Below are positions 3,641 through 52,275 of a stretch of 64,000 nt of DNA, one piece after another; position 1 is the stretch's first letter; every line of letters begins with the position of its first letter. This stretch comes from Candidatus Staskawiczbacteria bacterium. GTDB lineage: Bacteria > Patescibacteriota > Minisyncoccia > Minisyncoccales > Staskawiczbacteraceae. The position numbers were made by a program, and so were the translations under genes. The stretch is from positions 3,115 to 67,114 of the forward strand of contig JAPLZF010000019.1 of NCBI GenBank assembly GCA_026395175.1. The letters run 5' to 3'. The notes beneath the pieces were generated by a model. That model worked only from the letters and a program-made list of their open reading frames with translations. It did no database searches and was not told the DNA's origin.

Positions 3641-4072
3641 CTACACACGGAAAATCTCCTTTGTTCGGCAGTCGATATCCAATCCCGTCCCTTTAGGAAC
3701 GGTAAGATACGGTAACCTGACATTCAGATGTGTCTTCCCAAACCATTTTGGAAAAAGCTCTACTTGAACGTGGGCGACTACCACCACGGTTTCAGCTTGA
3801 TTTGTATGGGCAGAAATTAGTGAGACCAATTTCTGGTTATCCCACTCGTCATAGAGAAACCTGTGGCTTTCAAAAGTTGTGCTAAATTTCTCGGCGATGA
3901 TCATGGCGCTGTCAATTGCGCGCGGCGCAGTAGAAGAAAGAACCAGCATTGAACTCCCATTAATATTATCGGCGAGTACCTCTGCTAATTCTACAATCTG
4001 TTGCCGCCCCGTATCGGATAGATGGCCGTCAAGACCATAATCTCCGTGCCTAACCAAAACTAGTCTTTCCAT
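3641..4072 (-). CDS. Histidine phosphatase family protein (SixA/phosphoglycerate-mutase-like)
   Basis: 143-aa ORF starting MERLVLVRHGDY (RHG motif) with later VVAHV; GGAG RBS upstream; visibly GC-richer than flanks. Confidence 0.6.
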   Translation of the reverse strand: MERLVLVRHGDYGLDGHLSDTGRQQIVELAEVLADNINGSSMLVLSSTAPRAIDSAMIIAEKFSTTFESHRFLYDEWDNQKLVSLISAHTNQAETVVVVAHVQVELFPKWFGKTHLNVRLPYLTVPKGTGLDIDCRTKEIFRV

Positions 4073-4160: not shown

Positions 4161-4190
4161 AATACCCCACCGGGTTAGGGTGAAGTATTT
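4161..4190 (-). terminator. Hairpin plus U-run downstream of the 4230..4772 gene
   Basis: minus strand AUACUUCACC-loop-GGUGGGGUAU (two G-U pairs) followed by UUUUUG. Confidence 0.45.
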
Positions 4191-4195
4191 TTGAA

Positions 4196-4233
4196 ATAGT
4201 AGGTTTTTTGGCTCGAGCCAAAAAACCTACTAT
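4196..4233. repeat. 38-bp perfect palindrome, family 2 copy 1 (ATAGTAGGTTTTTTGGCTCGAGCCAAAAAACCTACTAT)
   Basis: read directly; centred on CTCGAG; overlaps stop codon of the 4230..4772 gene. Confidence 0.9.
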
Positions 4234-4772
4234 AATCCGAACTTTAATTTAATTTTGTCCTGATTGTCTATAAAATCTAACAGCCCAAATCTGACATATT
4301 TTTCAAGCTTAAATAATTTTACAAAGTCATCAACTTCCTTTTTACAATCATATGGGTGCAAAAAAATGCTTTCTTGTAACTCATAAAACCCTCCCATTTT
4401 TAACCTATAATTAAGAGCATTCCTGCCCTTTCTGCATTCGTTAGGTATATCAAAAGCTACCATGCGCCACTTGCCATCCCATTTTTCTTTTTTGTTGTTA
4501 AGTCTTCTAAATCTAAAATTGATCGCTCGAAGTAATCCCCTCTCAGTTAAAGAAACCAAAACAGCCCCTTCGTAATTTTTCTTTTTCTCAATTAACTTTT
4601 CCTTTTTAAGGTCGTAAACCGCAGTGCTTAATTGTTTTGAGCTAAAATTATGTATGTCTTTAAGCACATCATTCAAAAGAAAAAATCTGGCATCATCACG
4701 CCCACCAACTCGACACTGTTCGGTTTGATAATATATGTTCCACAATATTTCTTCTATAATTTGATTCTTCAT
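4230..4772 (-). CDS. PaaX-family / Cas2-fold (VapD-like) domain protein
   Basis: 180-aa ORF; segment WDGKWRMVAFDIPNECRKGRNALNYRLKMGGFYELQESIFLHPY resembles the Cas2-like ferredoxin fold found in PaaX C-terminal regions; assignment by eye only. Confidence 0.5.
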   Translation of the reverse strand: MKNQIIEEILWNIYYQTEQCRVGGRDDARFFLLNDVLKDIHNFSSKQLSTAVYDLKKEKLIEKKKNYEGAVLVSLTERGLLRAINFRFRRLNNKKEKWDGKWRMVAFDIPNECRKGRNALNYRLKMGGFYELQESIFLHPYDCKKEVDDFVKLFKLEKYVRFGLLDFIDNQDKIKLKFGL

Positions 4773-4821
4773 GTTTAGATGTCTTTATATGTTTTATTAT
4801 ACCAAAATTCTTTTCTTTCAT

Positions 4822-4859
4822 ATAGTAGATTTTTTGGCTCGAGCCAAAAAACCTACTAT
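4822..4859. repeat. Palindrome family 2 copy 2 (one mismatch)
   Basis: ATAGTAGATTTTTTGGCTCGAGCCAAAAAACCTACTAT, 50 nt upstream of the 4230..4772 gene start. Confidence 0.9.
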
Positions 4860-5003
4860 TCTCTGTTCCTTTTATTTTTTATGTCAGCTATTTTCTATCT
4901 CACGTAAAAAAAAAATACAAAAAAAGAGCGCTGGGCGAACCATGCGCTATGTGATGCTGTATCGCCTGATTTTCGCGCTTACGCGCAATTATCATTTGAT
5001 GGG

Positions 5004-5234
5004 TCAGCGTCCAGTTCCTTCATTGTCGTCCTTAGTTGTAGTTCCCCAAATCATTATCTGAGAGAAAGTGGGAAGTAAGAGGAACCATAACACGACAAGT
5101 TCTGAACTGACTCGCTTCTTCGCCAGAGCTTTCTCCGCTGGGCTAAGTATTTTGTAGGATTCTATTCCCACATTTATACAATAGCCCGCTACACACCAAA
5201 GAAAAAACCCTAAAGCTAGTATGAAATATACCAT
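5004..5234 (-). CDS. Small hypothetical membrane protein (76 aa)
   Basis: two hydrophobic helices; strong SD GGAGGTG 7 nt upstream of ATG; lies in a GC-richer patch; hairpin plus T-run downstream (about 4921..4950). Confidence 0.4.
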   Translation of the reverse strand: MVYFILALGFFLWCVAGYCINVGIESYKILSPAEKALAKKRVSSELVVLWFLLLPTFSQIMIWGTTTKDDNEGTGR

Positions 5235-5346
5235 GGCAATTCACCTCCCTTCAGAAGTTTAGCTTGCCTGCCGTCCCACGATGCGGGAATTATTGTCAAG
5301 TTACACACGTCAATCGTATAATTTATTTCATATATTGTCAATTTTT

Positions 5347-5383
5347 ACAACAAAATACCCCACTTTTTTGAAGTGGGGTATTT
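5347..5383 (-). terminator. rpoC intrinsic terminator
   Basis: AAATACCCCACTT-loop-AAGTGGGGTATTT perfect stem followed by T-run on minus strand, 10 nt after rpoC stop. Confidence 0.75.
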
Positions 5384-5393
5384 GCTAATTTTT

Positions 5394-8300
5394 TTATTCC
5401 TCTTCGTCTTTGACTTTTGGAATAAAGCCTGTGCCTACTGGAATTAATTTTCCAATAATTACGTTTTCTTTTAATCCGCGAAGTTTGTCTTCTTTGCCTT
5501 CAAGACATGCTTTAATTAAAACTCTTGAGGTTTGCTGAAAGGAAGCCGCTGACAAGAATGATTCTGAGTTTAAGGCAACTTCAGAAATTCCAAGCAATAT
5601 TTGCACGCCGGTTGGCGGAATTTTTTTGTCTTTCTTCAACCTGTCGCATTCTTCGTTGAAAATTTCTCTTTCAACAACTTCTCCCCTTATCCAGTCAGAT
5701 TCGCCCTCTTCTTTAACTTTCACTCTTGAAAACATCTTTTGGATAATTACTTCAATGTGTTTGTCGTTAATATCAACACCCTGTGAAGAATAAATTTTCT
5801 GCACTTCCTGCAAAATATATCTTTGGGTTGGTTCAACGCCGGCAGATTTGTAAAGCTTTTTTAAATCCAAACTTCCTTCGCACAATGGTTGGTTTTCCTT
5901 AATTTCCTGGCCTTTTTCAACAATAATTGCAATTCTGCCGGGAATTTTGTATTCCATTGTTTCTTTTTTCAAAGCTGATTTCTTGCCTTCTTTTTCTTGT
6001 GCCACGGGCTGAATTCTAATAATTCTGTTTTCTTCATCAATTGAAAGAACTTTTCCTGCTGTCAAAGACATTATTGCTTCTCCTTTTGGCGCTCTGCATT
6101 CAAAAATTTCTTCAATTCTTGGCAAACCTTGCGTAATGTCGCCTGCTCCCACAATTCCTCCCAAATGGTGAGTTCTTAAAGTAAGCTGTGTGCCAGGTTC
6201 TCCAATTGCTTGAGCTGCAACAATTCCAACTGCCTCTCCCAATTTAATTGAAGCATTTCTGCCCAAATCCCAGCCATAACATTTTTGACAAACTCTCTGA
6301 GAAGATTTGCAGGTTAATGGTGAAGCAACAATTACTCTTTCTATTTTTTCATCAACTGCAATTGCTTTGGCAGCCTGCCAATTTATAATTTCGCCTTTCT
6401 TTACTGAAATATCTCCTGATTGGACTGATTCTAAAGCAGTTCTGCCGACAATTTTGAAAACAAAATCTTGTTCAATTAAGTCTGCGTCTTTTTTGTAAAC
6501 AACCAAGCCTGCTTTGTCTCCGCAGTCTTCGTCGGTAATAATTACGTCGTGAGCCACGTCAACCAATCTTCTTGTTAAATATCCTGCAGAAGAAGTTCTT
6601 AAGGCTGTGTCGGCTGTTCCTTTTCTGGCTCCGTGAGTTGAAATGAAATATTCCAATACATTAAAGCCTTCGGTAAAAGATGATTTCACCGGAAGCTCAA
6701 TAATATCTCCTGAAGGATTGTTCACCAAACCTTTCATTCCTGCCATCTGGACGGGTTGGGCCCAAGTGGCTCTGGCGCCGGCTGTAATAATTGACATAAC
6801 CGGACCATCTGGCGGTAAAGTGGTTTTCAACAAGGCTTCAAGTTTTGTTTTGACTGTCTGCCAAATTAAAATCTTCTGAGATGTTTTTTCATCTGGGCTC
6901 AAAAGTCCTTTTTCAAAGTGGCTGTCAATTTTTCTTACTTCATCTTCTGCTGCGTCAACCAATTCTTTCTTTTCTTTTGGAACAATCAAGTCATCCATTC
7001 CCCATGAAACGCCAGATAACGTGCAATATTCAAATCCCAATGTTTTAATTCTGTCTATAATTACAACTGCTTCCTCATTTGGATATTTTTCAATAATTTC
7101 TCGGACAATGCCTTTTAATTGTTTGTTATCAACCAATCTGTTCACAAAAGGATAGTCATACGGCAAAACATCATTCAAAATTAATCTGCCCACGGTTGTC
7201 TCAATCATTTCAATCTTTTCAACGTTTTTTGGACTTGGAACTTTTATCAAATCGTTTTGGCCCAAAAATCCATATTCAAAAGCTGTTGTGGCTTCCGAAG
7301 CGCTTGAGTATGTTTTTATTTTTTTTGTGTCTGAAACATCCTGCAATCTGTTTAGTTTTGTCAAAAAGTAGCAACCCAAAGCAATGTCGCGGAATGGTCC
7401 AATTACCGGCATTCCGGTTGCAGGCCTTAAAAGATTTAATGTTGAAAGCATAATTTCTCTGGCTTCTTTTTGAGCCTCGTCTGACAAAGGCAAATAAACC
7501 GCCATTTGGTCGCCGTCAAAGTCAGAGTTGAAGGCTTCGCAAACCAACGGATGTAATTTTATTGTTTCTCCTTCTGTCAAAATTGGTCTAAATGCTTGAA
7601 TGCCAAGCCTGTGCAAAGTTGGAGCCCTGTTCAACAGAACCAACTTGTCTTTGATAATTTCTTCTAAAATTGCCCAGACATCCGGGGTTTTTTCTTCAAC
7701 CAATCTGGCAGCTCCCCTAATGTTGTAAGCCAATTCTTTGTCTAAAATTCTTTTGATTACAAATGGTTTGAAAATTTCCAAAGCCAATGTTTTTGGCAAA
7801 CCGCATTGAGAAAATTTTAATTCTGGCCCCACCGCAATAACAGATCTGCCAGAATAGTCCACACGTTTTCCCAAAAGGTTTTGTCTGAATCTTCCCTGTT
7901 TTCCTGCCAAAATGGCGGCCAAAGATTTTAACAATCTTTTGCCTCCTGTGGTTGCGGTTGTCGTGACTCCTTTTCTCATTTCGTTGTCAATTAAGGCGTC
8001 AACAGCTTCCTGCAACATTCTTTTTTCGTTACGCACAATTACCGGCGGAGCTTTTATTTCCTGCAAATATTTTAACCTGTTGTTTCTGTTGATGACTCTT
8101 CTGTACAAATCGTTTAAGTCAGAAGAAGCGTATCTTCCGCCGTCCAACTGAACCATTGGTCTTAAATCTGGCGGCAAAACAGGCAAAACATCCAGAAACA
8201 TCCATTCTGGCTTAACTCCCGCTTTCAGCATTCCCTGAAAAAGTTTTAACCTTCGTAAAATTTTCTTTTTTGTTGCCGGCGGAGCATTTCTGGCTTCCTC

Positions 8301-9094: not shown

Positions 9095-9670
9095 TTATTT
9101 CGCAAATTTAAAAGTGGAAAGTATTTGAGACACGTCGCTATTAAAAGAAAAAATATCAATAACATAAACTAAATTATTTTTTTCTAAAATATACGTAGCA
9201 CTAGTGTCCGTTTTTGGGTCCCTGCCAAAATAAAACTTTTCAGCTCGAAGTCCATTTATATAAACTGTTTCTCTTGTATGAGTTGCCTTATTACTTAACC
9301 ATGAATCTATATTTCCGCTTTGGATATACAAATCTAGACCAATAGGCACACCATTCGGCTCGCCAATTGCTGATATTTGCATCCAATGAAGAGTTTTTCC
9401 CTCAGGAGTTTCAACAAATAAGCTCCACTTATCAGCTGGATATTTTATAGAAAATCCATACTGAGAATTTGTATATGTTTTCCAACCAGCAGTTTGGGTT
9501 TGGATTTGGTTGGTTTTTTGGCTCGAGCCAAAAAACTTACTATTTTGTTGTGCTTTTGTTGCAAATGTTGCAAAATATTGCCAAGCAAAAACTCCGCCGA
9601 AAAGAATAATTGCTATGGCGATGATAATTATGATGCCGACTAACGTTGAAATTCCTTTTTGTTTTTGCAT
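9095..9670 (-). CDS. Hypothetical membrane-anchored protein inserted between rpoB and rpoC
   Basis: 191-aa ORF; N-terminal TM helix (LVGIIIIIAIAIILFGGVFAW) then soluble domain; contains palindrome family 2 copy 3 in frame. Confidence 0.5.
   Translation of the reverse strand: MQKQKGISTLVGIIIIIAIAIILFGGVFAWQYFATFATKAQQNSKFFGSSQKTNQIQTQTAGWKTYTNSQYGFSIKYPADKWSLFVETPEGKTLHWMQISAIGEPNGVPIGLDLYIQSGNIDSWLSNKATHTRETVYINGLRAEKFYFGRDPKTDTSATYILEKNNLVYVIDIFSFNSDVSQILSTFKFAK
9507..9543. repeat. Palindrome family 2 copy 3 (degenerate arms) inside a CDS
   Basis: GGTTTTTTGGCTCGAGCCAAAAAAC core identical to copies 1 and 2; encodes KFFGSSQKT in the 191-aa ORF. Confidence 0.8.
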
Positions 9671-9974: not shown

Positions 9975-12900
9975 CTATTTTTTGTCGTCGCGGTTGTCGC
10001 GTCTGTTTTCTCGGTCATCTCGTTCCATACGAGGTCTTTCTTTAACTTCCACCGCCATGCCAAGTGATTTTAACTCGGCAACAAGCAAGTTAAAGGATGC
10101 TGGAATATTTGGATTTCTAATTGGCTCGCCTTTCAAAATTGATTCATAAGCTGCAGCCCTTCCTTGCACGTCGTCAGATTTTATGGTCAACATTTCTTGC
10201 AAAGTGTGTGCAACTCCGTAACCTTCCAAAGCCCAGACTTCCATTTCTCCAAATCTCTGGCCTCCAAACTGGGCTTTTCCTCCTAATGGCTGTTGAGTAA
10301 TTAATGAATAAGGACCAATTGACCTTGCATGGACTTTGTCGTCAACCATGTGAATCAATTTCATCACATACATATATCCCACTGTAATTGGCGTTGGAAA
10401 AGGTAATCCTGTTCTGCCGTCATAAACTGTAACCTGTCCAGACTCGGGCAAACCTGCCAATTTTAATTCTTCTTTCACGTCTTCCTGATTGGCTCCCAAT
10501 AATGCGGGAGAAATTGCAATGTAATTTAATTTATGGGCTGCCCAGCCTAAGTGAGTTTCCAAAATTTGTCCCAAATTCATACGAGAAGGAACAGACAATG
10601 GCGAGACTACCAAGTCAATTGGAGTTCCATCGGCCAAGAATGGCATTTCGTGCTCAGCCAAAATTTTTGAAACAACTCCTTTGTTTCCGTGCCTTCCCAC
10701 AAGCTTGTCTCCAACTTTTGCTTTTCTGGTTTCGGCGATTTCAACTTTAATTCTTTTTATAACTCCAGGCTCTAATTTGTGCCCAAGTTCTCTTGAAAAT
10801 ATTTTTACGTTGACAACTTTTCCTTTTTTTCCATGTTCCATTCTCAAAGAAGAATCTTTTACGTCTTTTGCCTTGTCTCCAAAAATTGCGCGAAGCAATC
10901 TTTCTTCCGGAGTCAGTTCTGCTTCTCCTTTTGGCGAAATTTTTCCAACCAAAATGTCATTTGGTCCAACTTCCGCCCCAACTCTTATAATTCCTTCTTC
11001 GTCCAAATCTTTCAATTTTTCTTCTCCAACATTTGGAATGTCTGAAGTTGTAACTTCAGGCCCAAGTTTTGTTTCCCGGACATCGCAAGTAAAATCTTCA
11101 ATGTGGATTGACGTAAATTCGTCTTCCTTTGTCAATCTTTCTGAAATGGTGATTGAGTCTTCAAACCCTCCTCCTCTTAAAGGCAAAAAGCAAACCAAAA
11201 CATTTCTGCCCAAGGCCAATCTGCCCTGTGAAATTGCAGCGCCGTCAGCCAACACATCGCCTTTCTTAACTTCTTCTCCCTTATAAACAATTGGTTTTTG
11301 ATGAAAGCATGAATATTGGTTTGTCCTAACAAAAGTCTGCAATTCGTAATCTTCCTCCCGCTTTTTTCCAGAAATATTATACTCAACTTTAATATGCTGT
11401 GCGTCAACCTCTTTTATAACTCCGGACGCTTGGGCCAAAATTACCTGCCCAGAATCGCGGGCAACATTTCTTTCTGTTCCTGTTCCAACCAATGGAGCTT
11501 CCGGTCTTATCAGCGGGACTGCCTGTCTTTGCATGTTTGAACCCATCAATGCCCTTGAAGCGTCGTCATGATTTAAAAACGGAATCAGCGAAGTGGCAAC
11601 CGAAATAAACTGCTTTGAAGAAACATCGCAATAATCAATTTCATCTATTTCAACTTCTTCCGGCTCGCCTTTTACTCTGGCTTCAACTTTGTTTGGTTCA
11701 ATTTCTGGAAGAATTTTTAATGCGTCTGTTAACGGCACCGATGCCGGCGCTATATTGTGCCTTTCTTCTTCCTGAGCTGACAAATAGTCAACTTGTTCGG
11801 TTACTTTGCCGTTTTTTACTTTAAAATATGGAGCCTCAATAAAGCCATAAGGATTTATTTTAGCAAAAGATGCCAAATGTCCCACCAGTCCAACGTTAGG
11901 ACCTTCCGGCGTTTCAATAGGACAAATCCTTCCATAGTGAGATGGCTGGACGTCCCTAACTTCAAATCCTGCTCTTTCCCGAGTCAAACCGCCAGGCCCG
12001 GTTGTTGTCAGACGTCTTTTGTGCTCCAATTCTGCCAATGGATTTTCGTTATCCATAAATTGGGAAAATGTCGAAGCAGTAAAAAATTCTTTTACAACAG
12101 CTATCAGCGGTCTTGGATTTATTAACTGAATAGGAGTTACTGTGTCGGCTTCCAAAGTGGACATTTTGTCTTTAATAATTCTTTCCATTCTCATCAAGCC
12201 AACTCTCAACCTGTTCTGCAAAAGCTCAGACAATGTCCTAACCCTTCTGTTTCCCAAATGGTCAACTTGGTCAGCTTTTGCGTCGGGGTCGTTATTCAAC
12301 CGAATAACTTCTTTAACAACTTCAACAATGTCATTTATGCTTAATATCCTGTCTTCTTTTGTAATTTCTTTATTTAAATTTTTCGGAGCCAAACCAGGCA
12401 GTCTCAGCCAAGTTTTCCATCTGCCGACTTTAGACAAGTCATACCTGTCAAAATTAAAAAACATTGAAAATATCAAATCTTGCGCCGTGTCCGGAGTAAC
12501 CAAATCGCCTGGCCTTAATCTTCTGTAAACTTCAACCAATGCTTCTTTCTGGTCTTTACAGGTGTCGCGTTTTAAAGTTTCTTTTATGTATTTTATTTCT
12601 CCTGTGTCAACATCTTTAAATGCTTTTTCAACCTTATCAACTCCGTCCAAGCCCAAAGCCATAAGCAAAGTTGTTGCCGGAACTTTTCTTTTTCTGTTTA
12701 TTTTTACTCCAATGAATCCAGATTCTTCTGTTTCAAATTCAAGCCAGGCTCCTCGGTTTGGAATAATTTTTGAGCCAAAATAATTTCTGCCACGAAATGT
12801 GCGGTTTGTAAAAAACGCTCCGGGGCTTCTGATAAGCTGTGAAACAACCACTCTTTCCACTCCGTTTACAACAAAAGTTCCCCTTTCTGTCATAACAGGG

Positions 12901-14509: not shown

Positions 14510-16521
14510 TATTTTACTAATTTCAAAAATTCTTTTTCAGAAAGCGTTTTTACTCCAAGTTTTTTGGCCTTATCTGCCTTGCTTCCTGGTTCTAACCCTA
14601 CCACAACATAACTTGTTTTTGAAGATACAGATTCAGAAATATCCCCGCCCAATTCCCTAATTTTTGCTTTTGCTTCGTCACGACTCATTGATTCTAAAGT
14701 TCCGGTCAAAACAAAACTTGACCCGCTCAACTTTTGGGTTTTGGGTTTTGGGTTTTGAGTTTTAACAAATTTTTGGAGTTTCTCTAAAAATTTGACATTG
14801 TCTTTTTCTTCAAACCACTCATAAATAGACTTTGAAACAATTGGCCCAATATCTGAAATTTTATCAAAATCCTCCAGTTTTGCTTCTTTAATTTTTTTGA
14901 TGCTTCCAAAATGTTTTGCCAGGTCAATTGCTGTTTCTTCTCCAACGTTGCGAATTCCCAAGGCATAAATAAATCTCGATAAAGCAATTTCCCGTTTTTC
15001 CTGAATTGATTTTATTAAGTTTTCAGCTGACTTTTCCGCAAATCTCTCCAAACCTTTTAAATCACCTTCTTTTAACTCAAATAAGTCTGCCGGCGTCTGC
15101 ACCAGTCCTTCATCCAGCAACTTGTCTATAATTTTTGGCCCCAAGCCGTCCATGTTAAAAGCAGCGCGAGAAACAAAATGGTAGAAATTCCTTCTTTTCT
15201 GCGCAAAGCAGTTTTTGTTGGGACAACGCAAAAGCACTTCTCCCTCAACTTTTTCTAATTTTGTTCCGCAGGAAGGACATTTTTCCGGCATTTTAAAATT
15301 TTTCTCGTGGCCGGTTCGCAATTCCGGCAAAACTTTTATAATATCCGGAATTACGTCGCCTGCTCTACCAACAATCACCGTGTCGCCAATTTTCAGGCCC
15401 AGTCTTTTTATTTCGTCTTCATTGTGCAAAGTTGCCCTTGAAATTGTAATTCCTGTAACTTGCACAGGTTCTAAAATTGCCACCGGTGTCATGGCTCCTG
15501 TTCTGCCAACCTGCACTATTACGTCTAAAACTTTTGTGGTTGACTGCGCCTGAGGAAATTTATAGGCAATGGCGCCCCGCGGAGCTTTGCCCACAAAACC
15601 CAATTTTTCAAAAATTTCATTATTGTTTATTATCACAACAATTCCGTCAATTTCGTAATCCAGCTTTTCCCTTCCTTTTATCCAGTGTTCTCTGAAATGC
15701 AAAACTTCCTCTAAACTTTTACAATATTTGTTGTGCTTATTTGTTTTAAAGCCTAAATCTTTTAAAATTTTGTGAGTTTGCTCGTGGGTTGCCTGGCTAA
15801 AATTAGTTTTTAAGTCATATATAAAAGAATCCAGTTTTCTTAAAGCAGTAATTTTGGGGTCTAATTGCCTCACAGAACCTGCTGCAATATTTCTTGGATT
15901 TGCATAAACTGCCAAGCCTTTTTCTTTTTGTTCTTTGTTTATTCTTTTAAATTCTTTTTTAGTAATAAAAACTTCCCCCCGCACAACTAAAGTTTTGGGG
16001 ACGTCCGACGTCCCACCGGACGTCGGACGTCCTAAGACTAATGGGATTGCTTCAACTGTTTTTAGGTTTTGTGTAATATCTTCTCCAATATTTCCATCTC
16101 CCCTTGTAGAACCTGTTTGTAAAAATCCGTCTTTATAAATTAATTCAATTGCCAGGCCGTCAATTTTTAATTCGCAATAATAATTTATTTTATTTTTGTC
16201 TTTTTCAGGAACTAATTTTATAAATCTTTCCTGCCAATCTGTAATATCGTCTTTTGAAAATGCGTCGTTAAAAGAAAGCATTCTTTGGCTATGCCTTATT
16301 TTTTTAAACTCTTTTAAGGGCTGGCCTCCCACTCTTTGCGTTGGCGAATCTTGTGTAATTAAATCTGGAAATTGGTTTTCCAAATCAAAAAGTTCCTTTT
16401 TTAAAGAATCCAAAGCAGAATCGGAAATTTCCTGTCGGTCTTGTACATGATAAAGATAACGATGATGATTTATCGTTTTTCTTAATTTTTCAATTCTTTG
16501 TTTTATTTCTTGCTTATCCAT
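14509..16521 (-). CDS. ligA: NAD-dependent DNA ligase LigA
   Basis: 670-aa ORF; adenylation motif CELKIDG, Zn finger CPSCGTKLEKVEGEVLLRCPNKNC, HhH and C-terminal BRCT (FVLTGTLESMSRDEAK). Confidence 0.96.
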   Translation of the reverse strand: MDKQEIKQRIEKLRKTINHHRYLYHVQDRQEISDSALDSLKKELFDLENQFPDLITQDSPTQRVGGQPLKEFKKIRHSQRMLSFNDAFSKDDITDWQERFIKLVPEKDKNKINYYCELKIDGLAIELIYKDGFLQTGSTRGDGNIGEDITQNLKTVEAIPLVLGRPTSGGTSDVPKTLVVRGEVFITKKEFKRINKEQKEKGLAVYANPRNIAAGSVRQLDPKITALRKLDSFIYDLKTNFSQATHEQTHKILKDLGFKTNKHNKYCKSLEEVLHFREHWIKGREKLDYEIDGIVVIINNNEIFEKLGFVGKAPRGAIAYKFPQAQSTTKVLDVIVQVGRTGAMTPVAILEPVQVTGITISRATLHNEDEIKRLGLKIGDTVIVGRAGDVIPDIIKVLPELRTGHEKNFKMPEKCPSCGTKLEKVEGEVLLRCPNKNCFAQKRRNFYHFVSRAAFNMDGLGPKIIDKLLDEGLVQTPADLFELKEGDLKGLERFAEKSAENLIKSIQEKREIALSRFIYALGIRNVGEETAIDLAKHFGSIKKIKEAKLEDFDKISDIGPIVSKSIYEWFEEKDNVKFLEKLQKFVKTQNPKPKTQKLSGSSFVLTGTLESMSRDEAKAKIRELGGDISESVSSKTSYVVVGLEPGSKADKAKKLGVKTLSEKEFLKLVK
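14732..14766. repeat. Heptanucleotide tandem repeat (TTTTGGG x3 then TTTTGAG, TTTTAAC) inside ligA
   Basis: read directly; encodes KTQNPKPKTQK linker just before the BRCT domain. Confidence 0.85.
15997..16032. repeat. GC-rich palindrome family 1 (REP-like) doublet inside ligA
   Basis: GGGGACGTCCGACGTCCCACCGGACGTCGGACGTCC; encodes GRPTSGGTSDVP in frame. Confidence 0.9.
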
Positions 16522-21046: not shown

Positions 21047-21514
21047 TTATGGACAAGCTCCTGTGGCGCAAGTCGCGCTAGCAGTTGCTGCCTCTACTTT
21101 TTTGCCGGAAGAATCAACGCAAAAACTTTTTGTTGCATCGTTTTTTAATACTACGCTGGCGCACCATTTAGTAGATGGGTCGGTGCATGTATTAGTGGCG
21201 CCTGAATCGCAGGCACAGGTCATGGTATATCCTGCGGCCGTTAAAGCTGTATTGATAGAGGCTCCGCCAGTTGTTGCTGTACAGAAGGTATTATACTTGC
21301 CGTTGTTCGCAGGGGTATCAATATATACAGTGCCCCTAGTCATCATACTTGCCAAATTACCTCTTGCTGCCGCGTCTTTGCCTTTGTTGATGTATTGGGT
21401 GACGTTAACCAACACAATGGCGGCTAATACCGCGATGATTGCGATAACGACGATTAATTCAATGATTGTAAAACCCTTCGATTGGCTCAGGGCTAAGCCT
21501 TTTGATTTATTCAT
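21047..21514 (-). CDS. Type IV major pilin paralog 1
   Basis: MNKSKGLALSQSKGFTIIELIVVIAIIAVLAAIVLVNVTQYINKGKDAA; Cys-rich variable C-terminus. Confidence 0.88.
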   Translation of the reverse strand: MNKSKGLALSQSKGFTIIELIVVIAIIAVLAAIVLVNVTQYINKGKDAAARGNLASMMTRGTVYIDTPANNGKYNTFCTATTGGASINTALTAAGYTMTCACDSGATNTCTDPSTKWCASVVLKNDATKSFCVDSSGKKVEAATASATCATGACP

Positions 21515-21558
21515 TTTGTTGTTATATAAAAGTTTTTATTAATTTATTATATTTACTT

Positions 21559-21605
21559 ATTATATTCTTTAACAAAATAGCAAGCAACATATAGGGTGTG
21601 GATAA
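21559..21605 (-). promoter_or_regulatory. Promoter of pilin paralog 1 with upstream TTATCCACA box
   Basis: minus strand TTATCCACA (21597..21605) - 9 nt - TTGCTT - 17 nt - TATAAT. Confidence 0.6.
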
Positions 21606-21678
21606 CTCAAAAAAAACAGAGCTCAATAAAGAACTCTGTTTTTAATTTTAATTTCGCAAAACAATTCTTGCTTTATAA

Positions 21679-22137
21679 TTACAAGCAAGTTCCTGTTGCA
21701 ACTAGACATGTCCCGCTAGCTTTACTCAACTTGTTTCCAGTAGAATCCACGCAATACGTGTTCGTGGACGATTTCAAGGTAACTTGCGCACACCAATTTG
21801 TAGATGGATCAGCACAAGCAGCAACATTGCAAGTGGCTGTAACTGTGTAACCAGCGGCAACTAATGCGTTATAAACAGAAACATAACCAGCTGCGCCAGT
21901 TCCAGTACCCGTAATAAAACCATTATAAGTGCCCGGTTTAGCATTGACGGGTGTAGTATCACCCGCAAACCATGTGGCTCCGTTTGTTATTAAAGAAGCC
22001 AAGTTGCCTTGTGCTGCTGCGTCTTTGCCTTTGTTGATGTAGCCGGTGACGTTAACCAACACAATGGCGGCTAATACCGCGATGATTGCGATAACGACGA
22101 TTAATTCAATAATTGTAAAACCTTTTGATTTATTCAT
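21679..22137 (-). CDS. Type IV major pilin paralog 2
   Basis: MNKSKGFTIIELIVVIAIIAVLAAIVLVNVTGYINKGKDAA; divergent C-terminus. Confidence 0.88.
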   Translation of the reverse strand: MNKSKGFTIIELIVVIAIIAVLAAIVLVNVTGYINKGKDAAAQGNLASLITNGATWFAGDTTPVNAKPGTYNGFITGTGTGAAGYVSVYNALVAAGYTVTATCNVAACADPSTNWCAQVTLKSSTNTYCVDSTGNKLSKASGTCLVATGTCL

Positions 22138-22179
22138 TTTGTTATTATTTTATTTTTTAAGCTCGACCTTTCTTAAATA

Positions 22180-22587
22180 TTATGGACAAACTGTGGCATC
22201 AAAATCGGCGCAAGCGGCAGTAACTGATTTCTTGGTTCCAGAACTGTCAACGCACCAATAATTTGCGGCTGTTGTAAGCAATTGAGAACAAGCGGCCCAT
22301 TCTGTAGCGCTTTCGACGCATACTTTGTCTGCTGTTGCTGATGGGTCTTGGTCAAAGATAGGTTTTCCGGCGGCAAAATTGGCAGCGCAGAATCCTGTGT
22401 AAGTATGATTTGTATCGTAGAATGTGGCTCCGTTTGTAAGCAAGGTTGCCATGTTTCCTTCTATTGCCGCGTCTTTGCCCTTGTTGATGTATTGGGTGAC
22501 ATTAACCAACACTATGGCGGCCAATACCGCGATAATTGCGATAACGACGATTAATTCAATAATTGTAAAACCTTTTGATTTATTCAT
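22180..22587 (-). CDS. Type IV major pilin paralog 3
   Basis: MNKSKGFTIIELIVVIAIIAVLAAIVLVNVTQYINKGKDAA; divergent C-terminus. Confidence 0.88.
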   Translation of the reverse strand: MNKSKGFTIIELIVVIAIIAVLAAIVLVNVTQYINKGKDAAIEGNMATLLTNGATFYDTNHTYTGFCAANFAAGKPIFDQDPSATADKVCVESATEWAACSQLLTTAANYWCVDSSGTKKSVTAACADFDATVCP

Positions 22588-22628
22588 TTTATTTTTTAAG
22601 TTTAAATTGTTTAATTTATTAGATTTTC

Positions 22629-22679
22629 TATACTTCGCCTTACGGCTCAGTATCTCGCCCCGTCAAACGGGACTCGACC
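22629..22679 (-). promoter_or_regulatory. Conserved two-hairpin 5' leader element, copy 1
   Basis: minus strand GGTCGAG-TCCCG-loop-CGGGG-CGAGATACTGAGCC-GTAA-GGCGAAGTAT; near-identical copy at 46751..46805 with compensatory stem changes. Confidence 0.5.
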
Positions 22680-22697
22680 TTTTTTATATTTTACTTC

Positions 22698-22743
22698 ATT
22701 TTACAGAATTAAAGATATTGACGCAATAGCAAGATGTGGATAA
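22698..22743 (-). promoter_or_regulatory. Promoter of pilin paralog 3 with upstream TTATCCACA box
   Basis: minus strand TTATCCACA (22735..22743) - 8 nt - TTGCGT - 17 nt - TAAAAT. Confidence 0.55.
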
Positions 22744-22805
22744 CTTCGTAGCGAGCAAGGCGAGCGGAGATCCTGACGCCCGAAGGCGGAAGGATAATAA
22801 CTGAT

Positions 22806-23279
22806 TTAATCAGGGCAGTGCGTTATATCCTCTCCGTCTGGACAAATGGTAATATCGCCAACGCAATGGTTATAGCATATTTCTTTTTTCATTCCCCTGC
22901 TGTCAACACAAAAAGCCAAATTCGGATTTGTAAATTCCCTGGCGCAGGCAGCCCATGCTTGGGAAATGGCGCCGCAACAAGCTCCGGTGGGATTCGAATT
23001 TTCGTCGTAGCATATAGTTGAAGGATTTGCCGGCGCTTGGGAAGCGATATTTGCAACAACAGGGGAAGTGCAAAAACTGACTCCTTCTTTGTTATAGCTG
23101 TTGCCGTTGTTGTTATAAAAAACTTCTCCGGCAGGAATTAAAATAGCCAAACTGCCGGAAACATTAGCGTCTTTACCCCTGCTGATGTATTGAGTAACCG
23201 AAAACAAAATAATTCCGGACAAAACAGCGGTTATCGCAATAACAACAACTAATTCTATAATTGTGAATCCTTTATCCAT
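22806..23279 (-). CDS. Type IV pilin paralog 4 (more divergent)
   Basis: start moved to MDKGFTIIELVVVIAITAVLSG (internal Met of the 172-aa track ORF, avoiding overlap with pilC); Cys-rich C-terminus. Confidence 0.8.
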   Translation of the reverse strand: MDKGFTIIELVVVIAITAVLSGIILFSVTQYISRGKDANVSGSLAILIPAGEVFYNNNGNSYNKEGVSFCTSPVVANIASQAPANPSTICYDENSNPTGACCGAISQAWAACAREFTNPNLAFCVDSRGMKKEICYNHCVGDITICPDGEDITHCPD

Positions 23280-23301
23280 AAATAATTTAAAATTTAAAAT
23301 T

Positions 23302-24510
23302 TTAGATGGTTCCCAAAGCTCCATACAACGGCTCTAAAATGGAAACCGCCACCAAAGCCACGCCTGCTCCTAAAAAAATTATCAGTATGGGCTCCAAAAG
23401 CGCTGTAAATGTTTCCACTGCTCTTTTTATTTCTTTATTGTAAAAATTAACTATCTCCATTAAATTCTTGTCCAACGTTCCTGTTTCTTCGCCAACTTGA
23501 ATCATCTGCACCACAAACGGCGGGGCATAATCGGGATATCTTACCAACACCGAGCTTATTTTTTCTCCTTGTGAAACTCTTTCTTCAGTTTCAGTCAGAA
23601 TTTTTTTATAAACAGAATTGCCCACCGTGTCTTTGGTGATTTTCAGCGCGTTGTTGATTGAAAGCCCGGCTCCCACTAAAGTGGAAACACTTTCGGCAAA
23701 CCTGACAAGAAATGTTTTTTTGAAAAATCCTCCTATAAACGGCACTTTTAAAGACCATTCATCATATCTTTTTTTGCCTTCTTTGGTTGTAAAATAATAA
23801 ATTATAAATCCGACCAAGATAAAAAATCCGACCAGCAAAATCCAGCCGTAATTCGCCAGAAAACCATAAAAGCTAATCATAAGCTGGGTAAATAACGGAG
23901 GCTTTGCCGTGGTCTGCTTCAATAAATCAACCAATTTAGGCATGACGAAAAATATGATAATTGGAACCACCACCAACAAAACCGATATGACGAAAATAGG
24001 ATAAATCATAGCTCCTTTTATTTGGGACGATATGTCCGATTCTCTTTCTAAATGGTCTGAAAGGAAATAAAGCGATTCGGAAATTTTTCCTGACGCCTCC
24101 CCTGTTTTTATCAAGCTGACGTAAAAAACATTGAAAACATCGGGAAATTCAGCGAATGCGTCCGACAGGGAATTCCCTTCTTCCACTAATTGGGAAATCT
24201 TTAAAATTTTTTCCTTAAAGTTCTGATTTTTTATTTGGAGAGCCAAACTTTTCAAACTCTGGGTAACAGGAACCCGCGACTGCACCATCACGGCCAATTG
24301 CCTGGAAAATATCGCCAAGTCTTTCTTGGAAACTTTGTTCAAAAATTCTATATTTCCAGTCTGAAAAATCAGAGGAGATTGCTCCTTTATAGATGTGACA
24401 AAAATATTATATTTTTGCAGAAGAAGGACTGCCGCTTCTTTGGAAGATGCCTCAACCGCGCCTGTTTCAATCTTGCCCTCCTTGGACCTGGCTTGATAAA
24501 AATATTTCAT
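23302..24510 (-). CDS. pilC: Type IV pilus platform protein PilC (T2SS F family)
   Basis: 402-aa ORF, duplicated T2SSF domains, three TM segments. Confidence 0.9.
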   Translation of the reverse strand: MKYFYQARSKEGKIETGAVEASSKEAAVLLLQKYNIFVTSIKEQSPLIFQTGNIEFLNKVSKKDLAIFSRQLAVMVQSRVPVTQSLKSLALQIKNQNFKEKILKISQLVEEGNSLSDAFAEFPDVFNVFYVSLIKTGEASGKISESLYFLSDHLERESDISSQIKGAMIYPIFVISVLLVVVPIIIFFVMPKLVDLLKQTTAKPPLFTQLMISFYGFLANYGWILLVGFFILVGFIIYYFTTKEGKKRYDEWSLKVPFIGGFFKKTFLVRFAESVSTLVGAGLSINNALKITKDTVGNSVYKKILTETEERVSQGEKISSVLVRYPDYAPPFVVQMIQVGEETGTLDKNLMEIVNFYNKEIKRAVETFTALLEPILIIFLGAGVALVAVSILEPLYGALGTI

Positions 24511-36188: not shown

Positions 36189-38402
36189 ATGATTTCGCTG
36201 AGTACAAAAGTTGAGGAAATACCGAAGATTGGAACGGTTTATGCAAAAAGATTGAAAAAGTTCGGCATAAAAACAGTGCAGGACCTGCTTTTTTATTTCC
36301 CGGCAAGATACGACGACTTTTCAGAAATAATTTCAATTAGTCGGGCCCGCCAAAGGTTAAACGATGTTGTTTGCGTGCAGGGGCAAATTACAGAAATTGA
36401 AAATTCTAATAGTTTTAAAAAGTTTATGTCGCTTACAGAAGCGACAATTCAAGATAATAGCGGAGAAATAAAAATTATTTGGTTTAACCAGCCATATTTG
36501 TCAAAAAATTTAAAAGAAGATGATTTTGTGTGCTTGGCGGGAAAAATAAGCTTGGGAAAAGATGGAGTTTATTTTAACAGCCCAAGCTATGAAAGAATAA
36601 ATGAAATTGGAGAAAATGAAGAGCTGACTCACACGGGCAGAATTGTGCCGGTTTATTCAGAAACAAAAGGTGTGACGAGCCGCTGGCTAAGATATGTAAT
36701 AAAACCTTTGCTTTATCGCTTTTGCGAACAAATTCAGGAATCTTTGCCAGAAGAAATTATTAAAAAATACAAATTTTTGCCAATACAAGAAGCTGTTTGG
36801 CAATTGCATTTTCCAAATTCTTTTGAGCACGCAGACGCAGCCAAAGCCCGCTTTTCTTTTGAAGAATTATTTTTAATCCAACTTAATGTTTTAAAAGAAA
36901 AAATAAAGTTGATGGTAAAAAAAGCTCATGCCTGCCCAATGGATTCAGATTTAATGAAAAGTTTTACCGATTCTTTGCCATTTTGCCTGACAGACTCGCA
37001 AAAAAAATGCGCATATGCAATTTTAAAGGATTTAGAAAAAACAGTTCCAATGTCCCGGCTTTTAGAGGGTGATGTTGGCTCTGGAAAAACTGTTGTCGCC
37101 ACGTTGGCGACACTGAACGTAGTGAAGTGTGGCCACCAAGTAGCCCTCATGGCACCAACGGAAATTTTGGCAAAACAACATTTTAAAACCGTTTCAGAAT
37201 TGTTAAAAGATTTTGACGTAAAAATTGGAATGCTGACTGGTAAAGATGCAAGAATTTTTAAAGAACAAAACACATATGAGGTTTCTAAAAAAAGTTTTCT
37301 TGGAGACTTGGAAAACGGGCAAATTGATATTGCTATCGGCACACATTCATTAATTCAAAAAGGAGTAGATTTTAAAGATTTGGCTTTGGTAATTTTAGAC
37401 GAACAGCACCGTTTTGGAGTAGAGCAAAGAGACCATTTAATAAAAAACAAAAAACTGGTTCCACATTTGCTTTCAATGACAGCAACTCCAATTCCAAGAA
37501 CTTTGGCTTTGACAGCTTATGGCGACTTAGATTTGTCTTTAATTGACGAAATGCCAGCCAACAGAAAAAAAGTAAAAACAATTATTGTTGAACCTAGCCA
37601 AAGAAAAGAAGCTTACAATTTTATTGACAAAGAAGTTAAAGAAGGCAAAGGAGTTTTTGTTATTTTCCCAAAAATTGACTCTGCGGCGACAAAACAAAAA
37701 GAATTGGAAGCAAAAGGACGTCCGACATCCCGCGGGATGTCGGACGTCCCAATAACTGGTTCTTTTGTGCCACAAAATTATGGCCCAATGTCTTTAGCGT
37801 CTTTAGCGGTCAACGAAGTTAAAGCTCTAAAAGAAGAATATGAAAAATTATCAAAAGAAGTTTTTCCCGATTTAAGAATTACAATGCTACACGGGAAAAT
37901 GAAGGCGCCTGAAAAAGAAAGAATAATGCTGGACTTTAAAAAAGGAGAAATTGATATTTTGCTTTCAACTTCTGTTGTTGAAGTTGGAGTTGATGTTCCA
38001 CGAGCAACTATAATGATGATTGAGGGAGCCGAGCGTTTTGGGCTGTCCCAGCTTCACCAGTTCAGAGGACGTGTTGGAAGGTCAGATATGCAGTCTTATT
38101 GCTTTTTGTTCACCACAGACCCAAGTATGCTTAATAGAAAGCGCCTAAAAGCCTTGGTTGAGTCAAACAACGGGTTTGAGCTTGCCGAAAAAGATTTAGA
38201 AATTAGGGGCCCGGGTAGTTTATATGGCACTCAGCAATGGGGAATTCCCGACATGGCAATGCAAGGCTTAACAAACATATTTTTAGTTGAAAAAACTCGC
38301 GCCGCCGCCAAAGAGCTTTTAGAAAAAGATCCTTCTTTGGAAAAACATCCTCAATTGAAAGAGCGCTTAAAAGAATTTGAAAAGCGCATCCACTTTGAGT
38401 AA
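36189..38402 (+). CDS. recG: ATP-dependent DNA helicase RecG
   Basis: wedge domain, helicase motifs GDVGSGKT, DEQHRFG, SMTATPIPRT, QLHQFRGRVGRS; start moved to MISLSTKVEE. Confidence 0.93.
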   Translation: MISLSTKVEEIPKIGTVYAKRLKKFGIKTVQDLLFYFPARYDDFSEIISISRARQRLNDVVCVQGQITEIENSNSFKKFMSLTEATIQDNSGEIKIIWFNQPYLSKNLKEDDFVCLAGKISLGKDGVYFNSPSYERINEIGENEELTHTGRIVPVYSETKGVTSRWLRYVIKPLLYRFCEQIQESLPEEIIKKYKFLPIQEAVWQLHFPNSFEHADAAKARFSFEELFLIQLNVLKEKIKLMVKKAHACPMDSDLMKSFTDSLPFCLTDSQKKCAYAILKDLEKTVPMSRLLEGDVGSGKTVVATLATLNVVKCGHQVALMAPTEILAKQHFKTVSELLKDFDVKIGMLTGKDARIFKEQNTYEVSKKSFLGDLENGQIDIAIGTHSLIQKGVDFKDLALVILDEQHRFGVEQRDHLIKNKKLVPHLLSMTATPIPRTLALTAYGDLDLSLIDEMPANRKKVKTIIVEPSQRKEAYNFIDKEVKEGKGVFVIFPKIDSAATKQKELEAKGRPTSRGMSDVPITGSFVPQNYGPMSLASLAVNEVKALKEEYEKLSKEVFPDLRITMLHGKMKAPEKERIMLDFKKGEIDILLSTSVVEVGVDVPRATIMMIEGAERFGLSQLHQFRGRVGRSDMQSYCFLFTTDPSMLNRKRLKALVESNNGFELAEKDLEIRGPGSLYGTQQWGIPDMAMQGLTNIFLVEKTRAAAKELLEKDPSLEKHPQLKERLKEFEKRIHFE
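37716..37750. repeat. GC-rich palindrome family 1 doublet inside recG
   Basis: GGACGTCCGACATCCCGCGGGATGTCGGACGTCCC; encodes GRPTSRGMSDVP in frame. Confidence 0.9.
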
Positions 38403-40590: not shown

Positions 40591-41775
40591 ATGAAAATAC
40601 TTGCCATAGAAACATCCTGCGACGACACGGGAATTGCCATTTTGGAGGTCTCAAAGACTGGAGATTTTGCTGTTAAGGCAAATGTTATTGCTTCACAAGT
40701 AAAAATTGGCAAAAAATACGGCGGAGTTTATCCAATGATGGCAAAACGCGAGCACCAAAAAAATATTCTGCCGGCCTTAATTAGCGCTTTGGAAAAAGCC
40801 AGGATGCTGAAAAAACCCGACAAAAGCCCAAAGGAGCATTTTGACGGGCCCGCCACAATCTCGCTAGAAGCGAGTTTGGGCGCGGTTTTAGAGAGAGAAC
40901 CGGAGTTGCTGAAAAAAATAATTCCATTCTTTAAGAAATATGAAAAACCAGATGTAGATTTAATTTCTGTCACAAATGGACCCGGTTTAGAGCCGTGTTT
41001 GTGGGTTGGAATAAATTTTGCAAAATGTTTGTCTTACTTTTGGAATATTCCGATTGTGCCGGTAAATCATACTGAATCTCACATTTTGGTAAATACTTTA
41101 GAAAATAAAAATATTAAATTCCCTGCCATTGCCTTAGTTGTTTCTGGCGGGCATACGCAAATTATTTTAGTGAAAGGCAAACCCCACTTCGCTAAAGCTT
41201 CGCGGGGCGCGTACAAAATTTTGGGTGAAACCAGAGACGATGCAGCAGGAGAATGCTTTGACAAATGCGCAAAAATTTTAGGTTTAGGCTACCCTGGCGG
41301 ACCAATTATTTCCAAATTAGCAGTAAAGTCGGTGGGATGTCGGACGTCCCACCGACTTCCGAGACCAATGATGGGCTCGGGTGATTATGATTTTAGTTTT
41401 TCAGGGCTGAAAACAGCTGTTTTGTATCAAGTGAAGAAAGACAAGAACAATTCTATGGAATTGTTCAATAAAGAATATAAAATGAAAATGGCGGCAGAAA
41501 TTCAGCAGGCAATAATTGATGTCTTAATTAAAAAAACAATAAAAGCCGGCACAGATTATAAAGCAAAAACAATAATTCTTGGAGGGGGAGTTTCTGCAAA
41601 CCAAGAATTAAGAAAACAATTTCTAGAATTTTCCAACGAATTTAAAATAATTTTTCCAAAACCAGAATTATCAACCGACAACGGTTTAATGATTGCTATT
41701 GCCGGGTTTTATCACAAAAATAAAATTACAAATTGGAAAAAGATATCTGCCAACGGCAATTTACGAATAAACTAA
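40591..41775 (+). CDS. tsaD: tRNA N6-adenosine threonylcarbamoyltransferase TsaD (with lineage-specific inserts)
   Basis: MKILAIETSCDDTGIAIL, VSGGHTQ, DDAAGECFDK, GGVSAN motifs; 394 aa versus about 340 typical. Confidence 0.92.
   Translation: MKILAIETSCDDTGIAILEVSKTGDFAVKANVIASQVKIGKKYGGVYPMMAKREHQKNILPALISALEKARMLKKPDKSPKEHFDGPATISLEASLGAVLEREPELLKKIIPFFKKYEKPDVDLISVTNGPGLEPCLWVGINFAKCLSYFWNIPIVPVNHTESHILVNTLENKNIKFPAIALVVSGGHTQIILVKGKPHFAKASRGAYKILGETRDDAAGECFDKCAKILGLGYPGGPIISKLAVKSVGCRTSHRLPRPMMGSGDYDFSFSGLKTAVLYQVKKDKNNSMELFNKEYKMKMAAEIQQAIIDVLIKKTIKAGTDYKAKTIILGGGVSANQELRKQFLEFSNEFKIIFPKPELSTDNGLMIAIAGFYHKNKITNWKKISANGNLRIN
41328..41356. repeat. GC-rich palindrome family 1 single unit inside tsaD
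   Basis: GTCGGTGGGATGTCGGACGTCCCACCGAC; encodes SVGCRTSHRLP in frame. Confidence 0.9.
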
Positions 41776-51428: not shown

Positions 51429-51456
51429 GTCGGTGGGACGTCGGACGTCCCACCAC
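51429..51456. repeat. GC-rich palindrome family 1, copy flanking the RAYT gene 3' end
   Basis: GTCGGTGGGACGTCGGACGTCCCACCAC, 9 nt after the stop codon. Confidence 0.9.
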
Positions 51457-51464
51457 TATCAATG

Positions 51465-52199: not shown

Positions 52200-52249
52200 T
52201 TTTTTTATTTTATTTATTATATTATTTATTATACCAAAAATAATTAAAA

Positions 52250-52275
52250 GGTGGGATGTCGGACGTCCCACCGAC
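52250..52275. repeat. GC-rich palindrome family 1 copy upstream of the RAYT gene
   Basis: GGTGGGATGTCGGACGTCCCACCGAC, 51 nt upstream of the ATG. Confidence 0.9.

Follow-up and report, generated by a model that had tools for sequence, protein, structure and literature searches.

PaaX, a GntR-type repressor of phenylacetate catabolism, is composed of a winged helix, a Cas2-like domain and a C-terminal phenylacetyl-CoA-binding domain. The Escherichia coli protein autorepresses Px by steric hindrance of RNA polymerase; its operator is an inverted repeat (TGATTC-N27-GAATCA) with a span of 39 bp, and the Cas2-like central domain of PaaX-type regulators has been described in a review as a dimerisation motif (PMC9493321). 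Here we describe the gene of a short PaaX-like protein, termed X, which lies between two copies of a long palindrome in a 64,000 nt stretch of DNA from Candidatus Staskawiczbacteria (contig JAPLZF010000019.1, positions 3,115 to 67,114; hereafter the window). With a probability of roughly 0.6, we propose that X, a truncated PaaX-like protein with a winged helix and a Cas2-like domain, recognises the palindromes as a dimer; the upstream copy would serve as an autoregulatory operator and the downstream copy as a second site.

Other described systems share parts of this layout. MarR- and PadR-type autoregulators are dimeric winged-helix proteins with a palindrome next to their own promoter, and RTP of Bacillus subtilis and Tus have Ter sites adjoining their own genes; as with X, a few additional sites are scattered over the chromosome. 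In contrast to X, these regulators have another dimerisation domain, and the X sites are much longer; we know of no systematic second site at the gene 3′ end in the MarR/PadR, RTP or Tus families. The partnership of repetitive extragenic palindromes (REPs) with REP-associated tyrosine transposases (RAYTs) is similar in that a single-copy, vertically inherited gene has the genome's own palindrome on both sides, paralogues pair with different palindromes, and extra copies lie at gene 3′ ends. Unlike a RAYT, X has no HUH or catalytic-Tyr domain, and its palindromes are AT-flanked, longer and few per genome.

The palindrome of the window (ATAGTAGGTTTTTTGGCTCGAGCCAAAAAACCTACTAT, 38 nt) has no mismatch at 4196-4233 and recurs at 4822-4859 with a single one, G to A at 4829; no match is expected by chance (100 dinucleotide-preserving shuffles). 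The sole long open reading frame (ORF) between the copies is that of X, 180 aa on the minus strand (4230-4772), with its TAG stop (4230-4232) inside the downstream palindrome and its ATG (4770-4772) 49 nt from the upstream one. An earlier sequence-only reading of the window, which had reported a perfect 38-bp palindrome over a stop codon, a one-mismatch copy ahead of the start and a discrete single-gene unit between them, is confirmed in these points. Between the upstream copy and the gene lies an extended −10 element, TGGTATAAT, at 4796-4804 on the minus strand (TGG 4804-4802, TATAAT 4801-4796), 20 nt past the palindrome and 23 nt ahead of the ATG. The palindrome centre is located 39 nt before the −10 hexamer, at about −51 relative to the likely transcription start. 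The downstream copy, the proposed second binding site, shows no promoter phasing; just past it are an intrinsic-terminator-like hairpin with a T-tail (4164-4181, minus strand; terminator scan) and then the promoter of the next gene (TTGACA-17-TATTAT, 4145-4117).

To place this unit among its relatives, a metagenome scan with an X protein alignment was performed, which yielded 80 further loci at 45-85% identity; bracket counts were made on 68 non-redundant loci, from Staskawiczbacteria as well as other metagenomes, whose flanks were long enough to the left and right of the gene. A matching pair of upstream and downstream palindromes was found in 54 of the 68, and some apparent exceptions carry imperfect copies, e.g. 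L017. The two copies of one locus had a median identity of 0.91, as opposed to 0.50 between loci, and 29 different central 10/11-mers occurred among the 54 loci. Despite these differences in sequence the architecture is common: a variable outer arm, T5-6 (or A3T4), a GC-rich core of 8-11 nt, A5-6 and again an outer arm. Palindromes of this kind numbered 117 in the 530 kb of DNA that was fetched, and 97 of them bracket an X gene. The centres of the two flanking copies are 568-746 bp apart, with no helical phasing between them (Rayleigh p ∼0.6). Judged from these comparisons, the bracket is a family-wide arrangement, with a different palindrome each time, and not a one-off cassette. It is apparently undescribed; no earlier description was found in the literature on PaaX/Cas2, the candidate phyla radiation (CPR) or Parcubacteria palindromic operators.

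The 22-nt core of the window's palindrome, TTTTTTGGCTCGAGCCAAAAAA, was counted across 185,579 species (one genome each). It had 14 exact sites, in only six CPR metagenome-assembled genomes (MAGs), five of which are labelled Staskawiczbacteria; X orthologues in three of the core-bearing MAGs are again palindrome-flanked, and the outer arms of core-sharing copies differ between genomes through matched changes on both sides. Palindromes of the shared architecture mostly stand beside X genes and appear not to be a common terminator-type repeat, the possibility that the sequence-only reading had set against its own cassette proposal.

The upstream copy is tied to the promoter of X throughout the family. 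A −10 element follows it in 52 of the 54 loci, in 40 cases as an extended TGnTATAAT. The distance from the palindrome centre to the −10 element peaks at 36 nt (38/52 within 32-42 nt) and is tighter when measured from the centre (standard deviation 3.3) than from the palindrome end (4.6). A phased −10 element, 30-43 nt from the upstream centre in the direction of the gene, was present in 40/54 loci and one facing away in 2/54, while none of the 54 had a phased −10 element on either side of the downstream copy. From the centre-to-−10 spacing, the upstream site is calculated to span roughly −67 to −29 and therefore to cover the −35 region. Eighteen loci look leaderless, i.e. the −10 element ends 6-7 nt before the ATG. 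The promoters in L003, L019, L025, L032, L045 and others, like that of the window (4796-4804), appear to consist of an extended −10 (TGnTATAAT) with no recognisable −35 element.

The palindrome also changes together with the DNA-binding half of the protein. N-terminal sequence clusters of X coincide with half-site classes. Two X paralogues of a single genome, the MAG JAPLYZ, have different palindromes (GGCTCGAGCC and CACGTGGCGTG), and paralogues, which are ∼76% identical or less, each come with their own. In same-slot orthologues both copies have changed in parallel: GGCTCGAGCC here is replaced by GCCTCGAGGC in L019, and by GCTCCAGC with A/T-swapped runs in both copies of L015. Matched arm changes of this kind are explained by a two-fold symmetric dimer with no hairpin invoked. 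Moreover, G:T arm mismatches were not in excess over A:C, and there is therefore no sign of selection for an RNA hairpin. The co-variation with the DNA-binding half, together with the promoter phasing of the upstream copy, argues that the palindromes are cognate protein-binding sites rather than recombination ends.

X is annotated as a hypothetical protein (identical protein, P0001) in a MAG of Candidatus Staskawiczbacteria, an uncultured bacterium of the CPR/Parcubacteria. Its residues 96-166 match the Pfam family PaaX_M (PF20803) at 2e-19 and 69.8 bits (cut-off 24). A structure model built on 79 homologues (mean predicted local distance difference test, pLDDT, 87.7) begins with a winged helix (helices 2-19, 33-38 and 45-57; wing 61-75), continues with a linker helix (77-92) and ends with a Cas2-like beta-alpha-beta-beta-alpha-beta domain (102-178), for which the pLDDT is above 90. 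Against the PDB, the model aligns best with E. coli PaaX (178 columns); PaaX structures (8A39, 3L09, 3KFW) have the same order of winged helix and Cas2-like domain. Next come winged helices of the MarR, SarA and RTP types (MepR too), then Cas2 and VapD. By sequence alone the winged helix reached 15.5 bits with HTH_27, under the cut-off, and residues 42-79 gave weak matches to the MarR recognition helix and wing. X is a winged-helix and Cas2-like protein, equal to the first two-thirds of PaaX; the PaaX/Cas2-like fold that had been read from the sequence is upheld by the PaaX_M match, the model and the PDB fold matches. The family is large: 2,212 representatives (one per 50% identity cluster) match with an E-value of at most 1e-10, and almost all of the 150 best-scoring ones are 170-210 aa long. 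Sequence variation among the homologues is concentrated in the winged-helix half, and the Cas2-like half hardly changes.

Two closer assignments of X were rejected. As a PaaX orthologue it scores 35.8 bits with TIGR02277 (cut-off 264.55), has no PaaX_C match, ends at residue 180 and so lacks the phenylacetyl-CoA-binding domain, and has no paa genes nearby, its neighbours being rpoB, rpoC, a histidine phosphatase gene, ftsK and recA. As a Cas2 protein it scores 20 bits with TIGR01573 (cut-off 24.5) and reaches only E 1.6e-4 with the Cas2 profile of PADLOC; PHROGs and PADLOC profiles gave weak Cas2 matches or nothing. With Cas2 and VapD it shares the ferredoxin-like fold, an Asp at the end of beta1 ('FDIP') and a 'QES.F' motif, but the domain is fused to a winged helix and is accompanied by no Cas1, CRISPR array or VapX. 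No cas genes were found among the neighbours of X, and the 64-kb window has no CRISPR array, as the sequence-only reading had stated. The expected similarity of X to Cas2, VapD and PaaX holds at the level of the fold for all three and falls short of the profile cut-offs for Cas2 and for a PaaX orthologue. The fold being that of a PaaX-type central domain, with neither cas genes nor an array, the CRISPR connection hinted at there is not borne out.

From the anatomy, co-variation, promoter phasing and synteny of the unit we infer binding and repression by X, as well as functions for the downstream copy and for the solo and in-frame ones. The symmetric site, 34-40 bp in length and thus comparable in span to the E. 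coli PaaX operator, would be read by an X dimer with two-fold symmetry. Occupation of the upstream copy, the outer arm of which lies over the −35 region, would control the transcription of X itself, most likely as autorepression by steric hindrance, as PaaX does at Px. Two features would set X apart from PaaX: its site is a continuous palindrome (T-run, GC core, A-run), and family members as a rule have a second copy at the stop codon. This downstream copy would be a second X site. It could act as an auxiliary operator that loops the ∼630-bp gene, or it could keep transcripts from running on between X and the adjacent genes, as a roadblock or insulator. Site, promoter, gene and site would together form a stable, vertically inherited chromosomal module in which protein specificity and sites drift together.

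Several points weigh against this model. The whole case is comparative, and it draws on the nearest 80 of the 405 relatives that were confirmed. In 35/54 loci the downstream copy starts −13 to +10 nt from the end of the stop codon, a tight apposition which a simple operator model does not predict; this copy has no promoter to regulate and is present even beside a convergent next gene (L016). Solo copies, which have no phased promoter, are located at the 3′ ends of genes or in frame within coding sequences (CDSs). In at least 90% of X-family members the Cas2 catalytic position is occupied by an Asp (D108, within 'FDIP'), and X may therefore have nuclease activity. The linker of UvrC hosts X-type or REP-type palindromes in different species, and unless something copies them, long palindromes without a mismatch would not readily arise at new positions. 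Finally, a genuine RAYT gene with the same bracket layout lies in the window itself, which keeps a REP/RAYT-like reading alive.

Such a reading is the main rival of the operator model, although we regard it as rather unlikely. The palindromes would be low-copy dispersed elements and X their non-HUH associated protein, which would bind the elements, perhaps as hairpins, and copy, homogenise or maintain them via its Cas2-like domain. X and its 30-45 bp palindrome might then, at the same rather low likelihood, represent a new CPR protein/palindrome partnership on a PaaX/Cas2-like scaffold, parallel to RAYT/REP. X could propagate or homogenise the copies, possibly by nuclease action at an extruded palindrome; another option is that the copies are roadblocks or insulators at gene ends, inside uvrC and inside a spacer gene between rpoB and rpoC. 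If this were true, a DNA site would dictate part of the sequence of the host proteins. The conserved D108, the layout shared with the true RAYT, the solo copies at 3′ ends and the in-frame copies all favour a partnership of this kind, as does the orientation of asymmetric centres, which are flipped between the two flanking copies about as often as not (10 flipped, 12 the same). Yet the copy number is small (three in the 64-kb window, at most eight in the richest MAG), and just two solo copies of the locus's own type were present in ∼330 kb around the 80 X genes. X has no Pfam match to the HUH domain Y1_Tnp and no HUH/Tyr transposase chemistry, and PaaX_M and Cas2-like domains are not known to carry out transposition. 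Comparison of close genomes revealed no recent insertion. That the upstream copy is so tightly phased to the promoter points to regulation, though it is compatible with a partnership as well.

The RAYT unit occupies 51432-52272. The IS200-like/RAYT gene (51465-52199, minus strand; HUH motif 'NHLHLIV'; the ORF 51465-52430 matches Y1_Tnp) is bracketed by a GC-rich 23-nt palindrome, GGTGGGAYGTCGGACGTCCCACC, with ∼70% GC compared with 38% in the genome. The upstream REP (52250-52272) is followed 16 nt on by the same TGGTATAAT that precedes X, the downstream REP (51432-51454) lies 10 nt past the RAYT stop, and another copy (51974-51996) is found in frame inside the RAYT's own CDS. Further in-frame copies at 15999-16032, 37716-37749 and 41326-41358 lie in ligA (GRPTSGGTSDVP), recG (GRPTSRGMSDVP) and tsaD respectively; these housekeeping proteins therefore carry REP-encoded peptide inserts.

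Solo copies of the X-type palindrome number one in the window and six in JAPLYZ. Solo copies were located after the genes for H+-PPase, a NUDIX protein, histidine phosphatase, GroEL and rhodanese and after rpoC; with functionally unrelated neighbours and no phased promoter, the idea of an X regulon is not supported. The JAPLYZ copies share the outer arms ATAGTAAG..CTTACTAT, as copies of a REP-like element within one genome might, with two exceptions: the uvrC copy (GTAAC..GTTAC) and a decayed copy beside the X stop. Given these solo and in-frame copies, the palindrome may to some extent have been copied to other positions, as suspected in the sequence-only reading. Besides their X pair, L011 (231-266) and L021 (2337-2364) have an extra palindrome of their own type 42 nt past the rpoC stop. 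A second hairpin family, (C)AGGTTAnC..GnTAACCT(G), occurs 25-45 nt from several solo palindromes (L001, L004, L005, L010); its L001 copies (∼5810-5835 and 6590-6615) are part of a repeated intergenic unit of ∼130 nt.

The solo copy of the window is the third copy noted from the sequence alone, and it was found as described, in frame and encoding NSKFFGSSQKTN (KFFGSSQKT). Its core, exact TTTTTTGGCTCGAGCCAAAAAA, lies at 9514-9535, and its palindromic part at 9513-9536, the outer arms having decayed. The host is a 191-aa ORF (9095-9670, minus strand) between rpoB and rpoC for a PsbP-like protein, and the insert falls in the linker after the membrane anchor. The in-frame copy is kept in orthologous rpoB-rpoC spacer genes whose proteins are just 39% identical; the 22-nt core shows no synonymous change among them, whereas neighbouring conserved codons differ at about half of the synonymous sites. 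The PsbP-like gene, a fast-evolving and membrane-anchored member of the interval, is also seen at 931-1563 in L100, 30-701 in L102 and 3583-4140 in L099. It is present between rpoB and rpoC in some Staskawiczbacteria and absent in JAPLYZ and L015; those members that have the FFGSSQKT peptide carry the 22-nt core without synonymous change.

The copy in the UvrC linker of JAPLYZ is not an insertion. Three further uvrC orthologues were chosen because their linker peptides predicted a palindrome, and all three had one of the same architecture at the same place; the four cores, JAPLYZ included, are GGCTCGAGCC, GCCTCGAGGC, GACGGCCGTC and GCGGCCGC. The T-run/GC-core/A-run was verified in the DNA at 4124-4165 of L002 and 2293-2316 of L103, and palindromes were likewise verified in L104 (uvrC 10001-11305) and L105 (uvrC 1297-2613), both at about residue 263. 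The linker, between the UVR and RNase H-like domains, has a palindrome in many Staskawiczbacteria. Protein sequences suggest two other palindrome types there: the RAYT-type REP, translated as VGGTSDVPPT, and a third type with the peptide KDFVKSDLTKS. Palindrome-compatible linkers with potential arms of at least 17 nt were found in 19/120 UvrC proteins compared with 2-4/120 after shuffling; this back-translation test is usable only at that length, as with arms of at least 9 nt the control region was positive in 113/120 and did not discriminate. The UvrC palindromes may be sites that co-evolve with X, or else the linker may act as a landing pad; the REP-type VGGTSDVPPT linkers and the excess of long palindrome-compatible linkers support the landing pad, and the variety of palindromes at this one place, X-type with four cores or REP-type, fits a REP-like behaviour.

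In-frame palindromes within protein genes are known as Rickettsia palindromic elements. The likeness is that in-frame palindromes are tolerated in linkers of housekeeping proteins, here PsbP-like and UvrC for the X type and LigA, RecG and TsaD for the REP type. The palindromes here, however, are much shorter (22-42 nt) and tied to a specific protein family, and it is the DNA of the core that is conserved among the divergent spacer-gene orthologues.

An element that acts in RNA is improbable. The transcript hairpins would serve processing, stabilisation or attenuation, with RNase III, or X itself as a Cas2/VapD-like RNase, trimming the X mRNA from read-through transcripts. Cas2 and VapD are ribonucleases, and X has weak, sub-threshold matches to Cas2 profiles; folding gives every copy a 17-bp stem with −22 to −25 kcal/mol (z ∼ −8), and transcribed DNA contains the downstream copy as well as the solo and in-frame ones. 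On the other hand, the upstream copy precedes X's own promoter at a fixed distance, arm mismatches have no G:U-type bias, the bases of the hairpin 'loop' (CTCGAG and others) are conserved as well as the stem, and site classes track the winged helix, a reader of duplex DNA. RNA-family searches of the 64-kb window matched tRNAs only.

We consider it very improbable that X is a recently mobile single-gene cassette of the transposon, integron or homing type with the palindromes as recombination ends, as the sequence-only reading had suggested, even though near-identical repeats bound the gene exactly. The minus-strand order in the window is rpoB, the PsbP-like membrane protein gene with the third copy inside, rpoC, the rpoC terminator, a 76-aa hydrophobic ORF, palindrome, promoter, X, palindrome, terminator, the histidine-phosphatase gene, ftsK and recA. 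The rpoC-X-ftsK-recA position is kept in orthologues down to 57% identity, and X paralogue lineages hold their own neighbourhoods (thrS/dnaE, a type IV pilus cluster and a region resembling type IV secretion systems); the unit is therefore vertically inherited and not recently mobile. No transposase, integrase or recombinase was present near X, and no target-site duplication beyond the palindromes is evident there. Multiple identical cassettes were not found either, paralogues being divergent and furnished with different palindromes, and phage records held no X homologue, plasmid records only true PaaX genes. A cassette might have left a single palindrome at a sister locus without the gene. 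In L099, where the order rpoB, PsbP-like, rpoC, ftsK is kept and X is absent, no relic palindrome is left in the interval. L011 (JAPLYZ) was rejected as an empty site with one palindrome: X and both palindromes are present there, and an IS30-like gene is interrupted at the contig ends of L009 and L011 alike. The variation of the rpoC-ftsK interval would be in keeping with mobility; it holds the IS30-like gene and a 91-aa ORF in JAPLYZ, and three other small ORFs in L099.

That the palindromes are generic bidirectional terminators or ordinary repeats unrelated to the gene, as intergenic copies near stop codons might suggest, appears already contradicted by the family-wide data, in which most such palindromes stand beside X genes and change in sequence together with the protein. 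On both strands they read T-run, GC core, A-run, the opposite of local intrinsic terminators (A-run, GC stem, T-run). A T-rich tail followed the downstream copy in 13/54 loci and the upstream copy in 16/54. Separate canonical terminators follow rpoC and X, and the terminator scan of the window flagged the one at 4164-4181 and none of the palindrome copies. A strict DNA terminator detector (no G:T pairs) scored 0/54 after downstream copies and is uninformative, because it also missed the window's own terminator. CTCGAG, as a restriction site, is not avoided in the window (seven sites in 64 kb, about as expected).

CPR bacteria (Patescibacteria) have tiny genomes and almost no characterised regulators, and the X family is large. 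With a probable binding site written twice beside each X gene, dozens of ready-made protein/site pairs may be at hand, which could be used to work out a winged-helix recognition code and to build orthogonal repressors. The constant site at the stop codon and the coding-sequence copies under DNA-level constraint go beyond textbook autoregulation, and study of the downstream and in-frame copies may uncover a mechanism of the roadblock, looping or REP-like kind. The true RAYT/REP system in the same window would make a comparison with the X unit directly testable.

Some minor features of the window were noted. Between the rpoC terminator (5353-5383) and the upstream palindrome lies a patch of 44% GC (4860-5352) that contains the 76-aa hydrophobic ORF (5004-5234, minus strand), which has no family match. 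The histidine-phosphatase ORF (3641-4072, minus strand) lies in a patch of 44-47% GC and encodes 143 aa, compared with 232 aa in its JAPLYZ homologue, a gene that is followed by a solo palindrome; the window gene may be truncated or recently acquired. In L017, from another species, a PaaX-like paralogue with its own palindromes lies between pilins and prepilin peptidase, a spot that is empty of it in the window. Next to its type IV pilus gene cluster, the window has a tandem array of four pilin-like paralogues (21047-23324), the 5′ regions of which are repeated (family D1, 62-87% identity).

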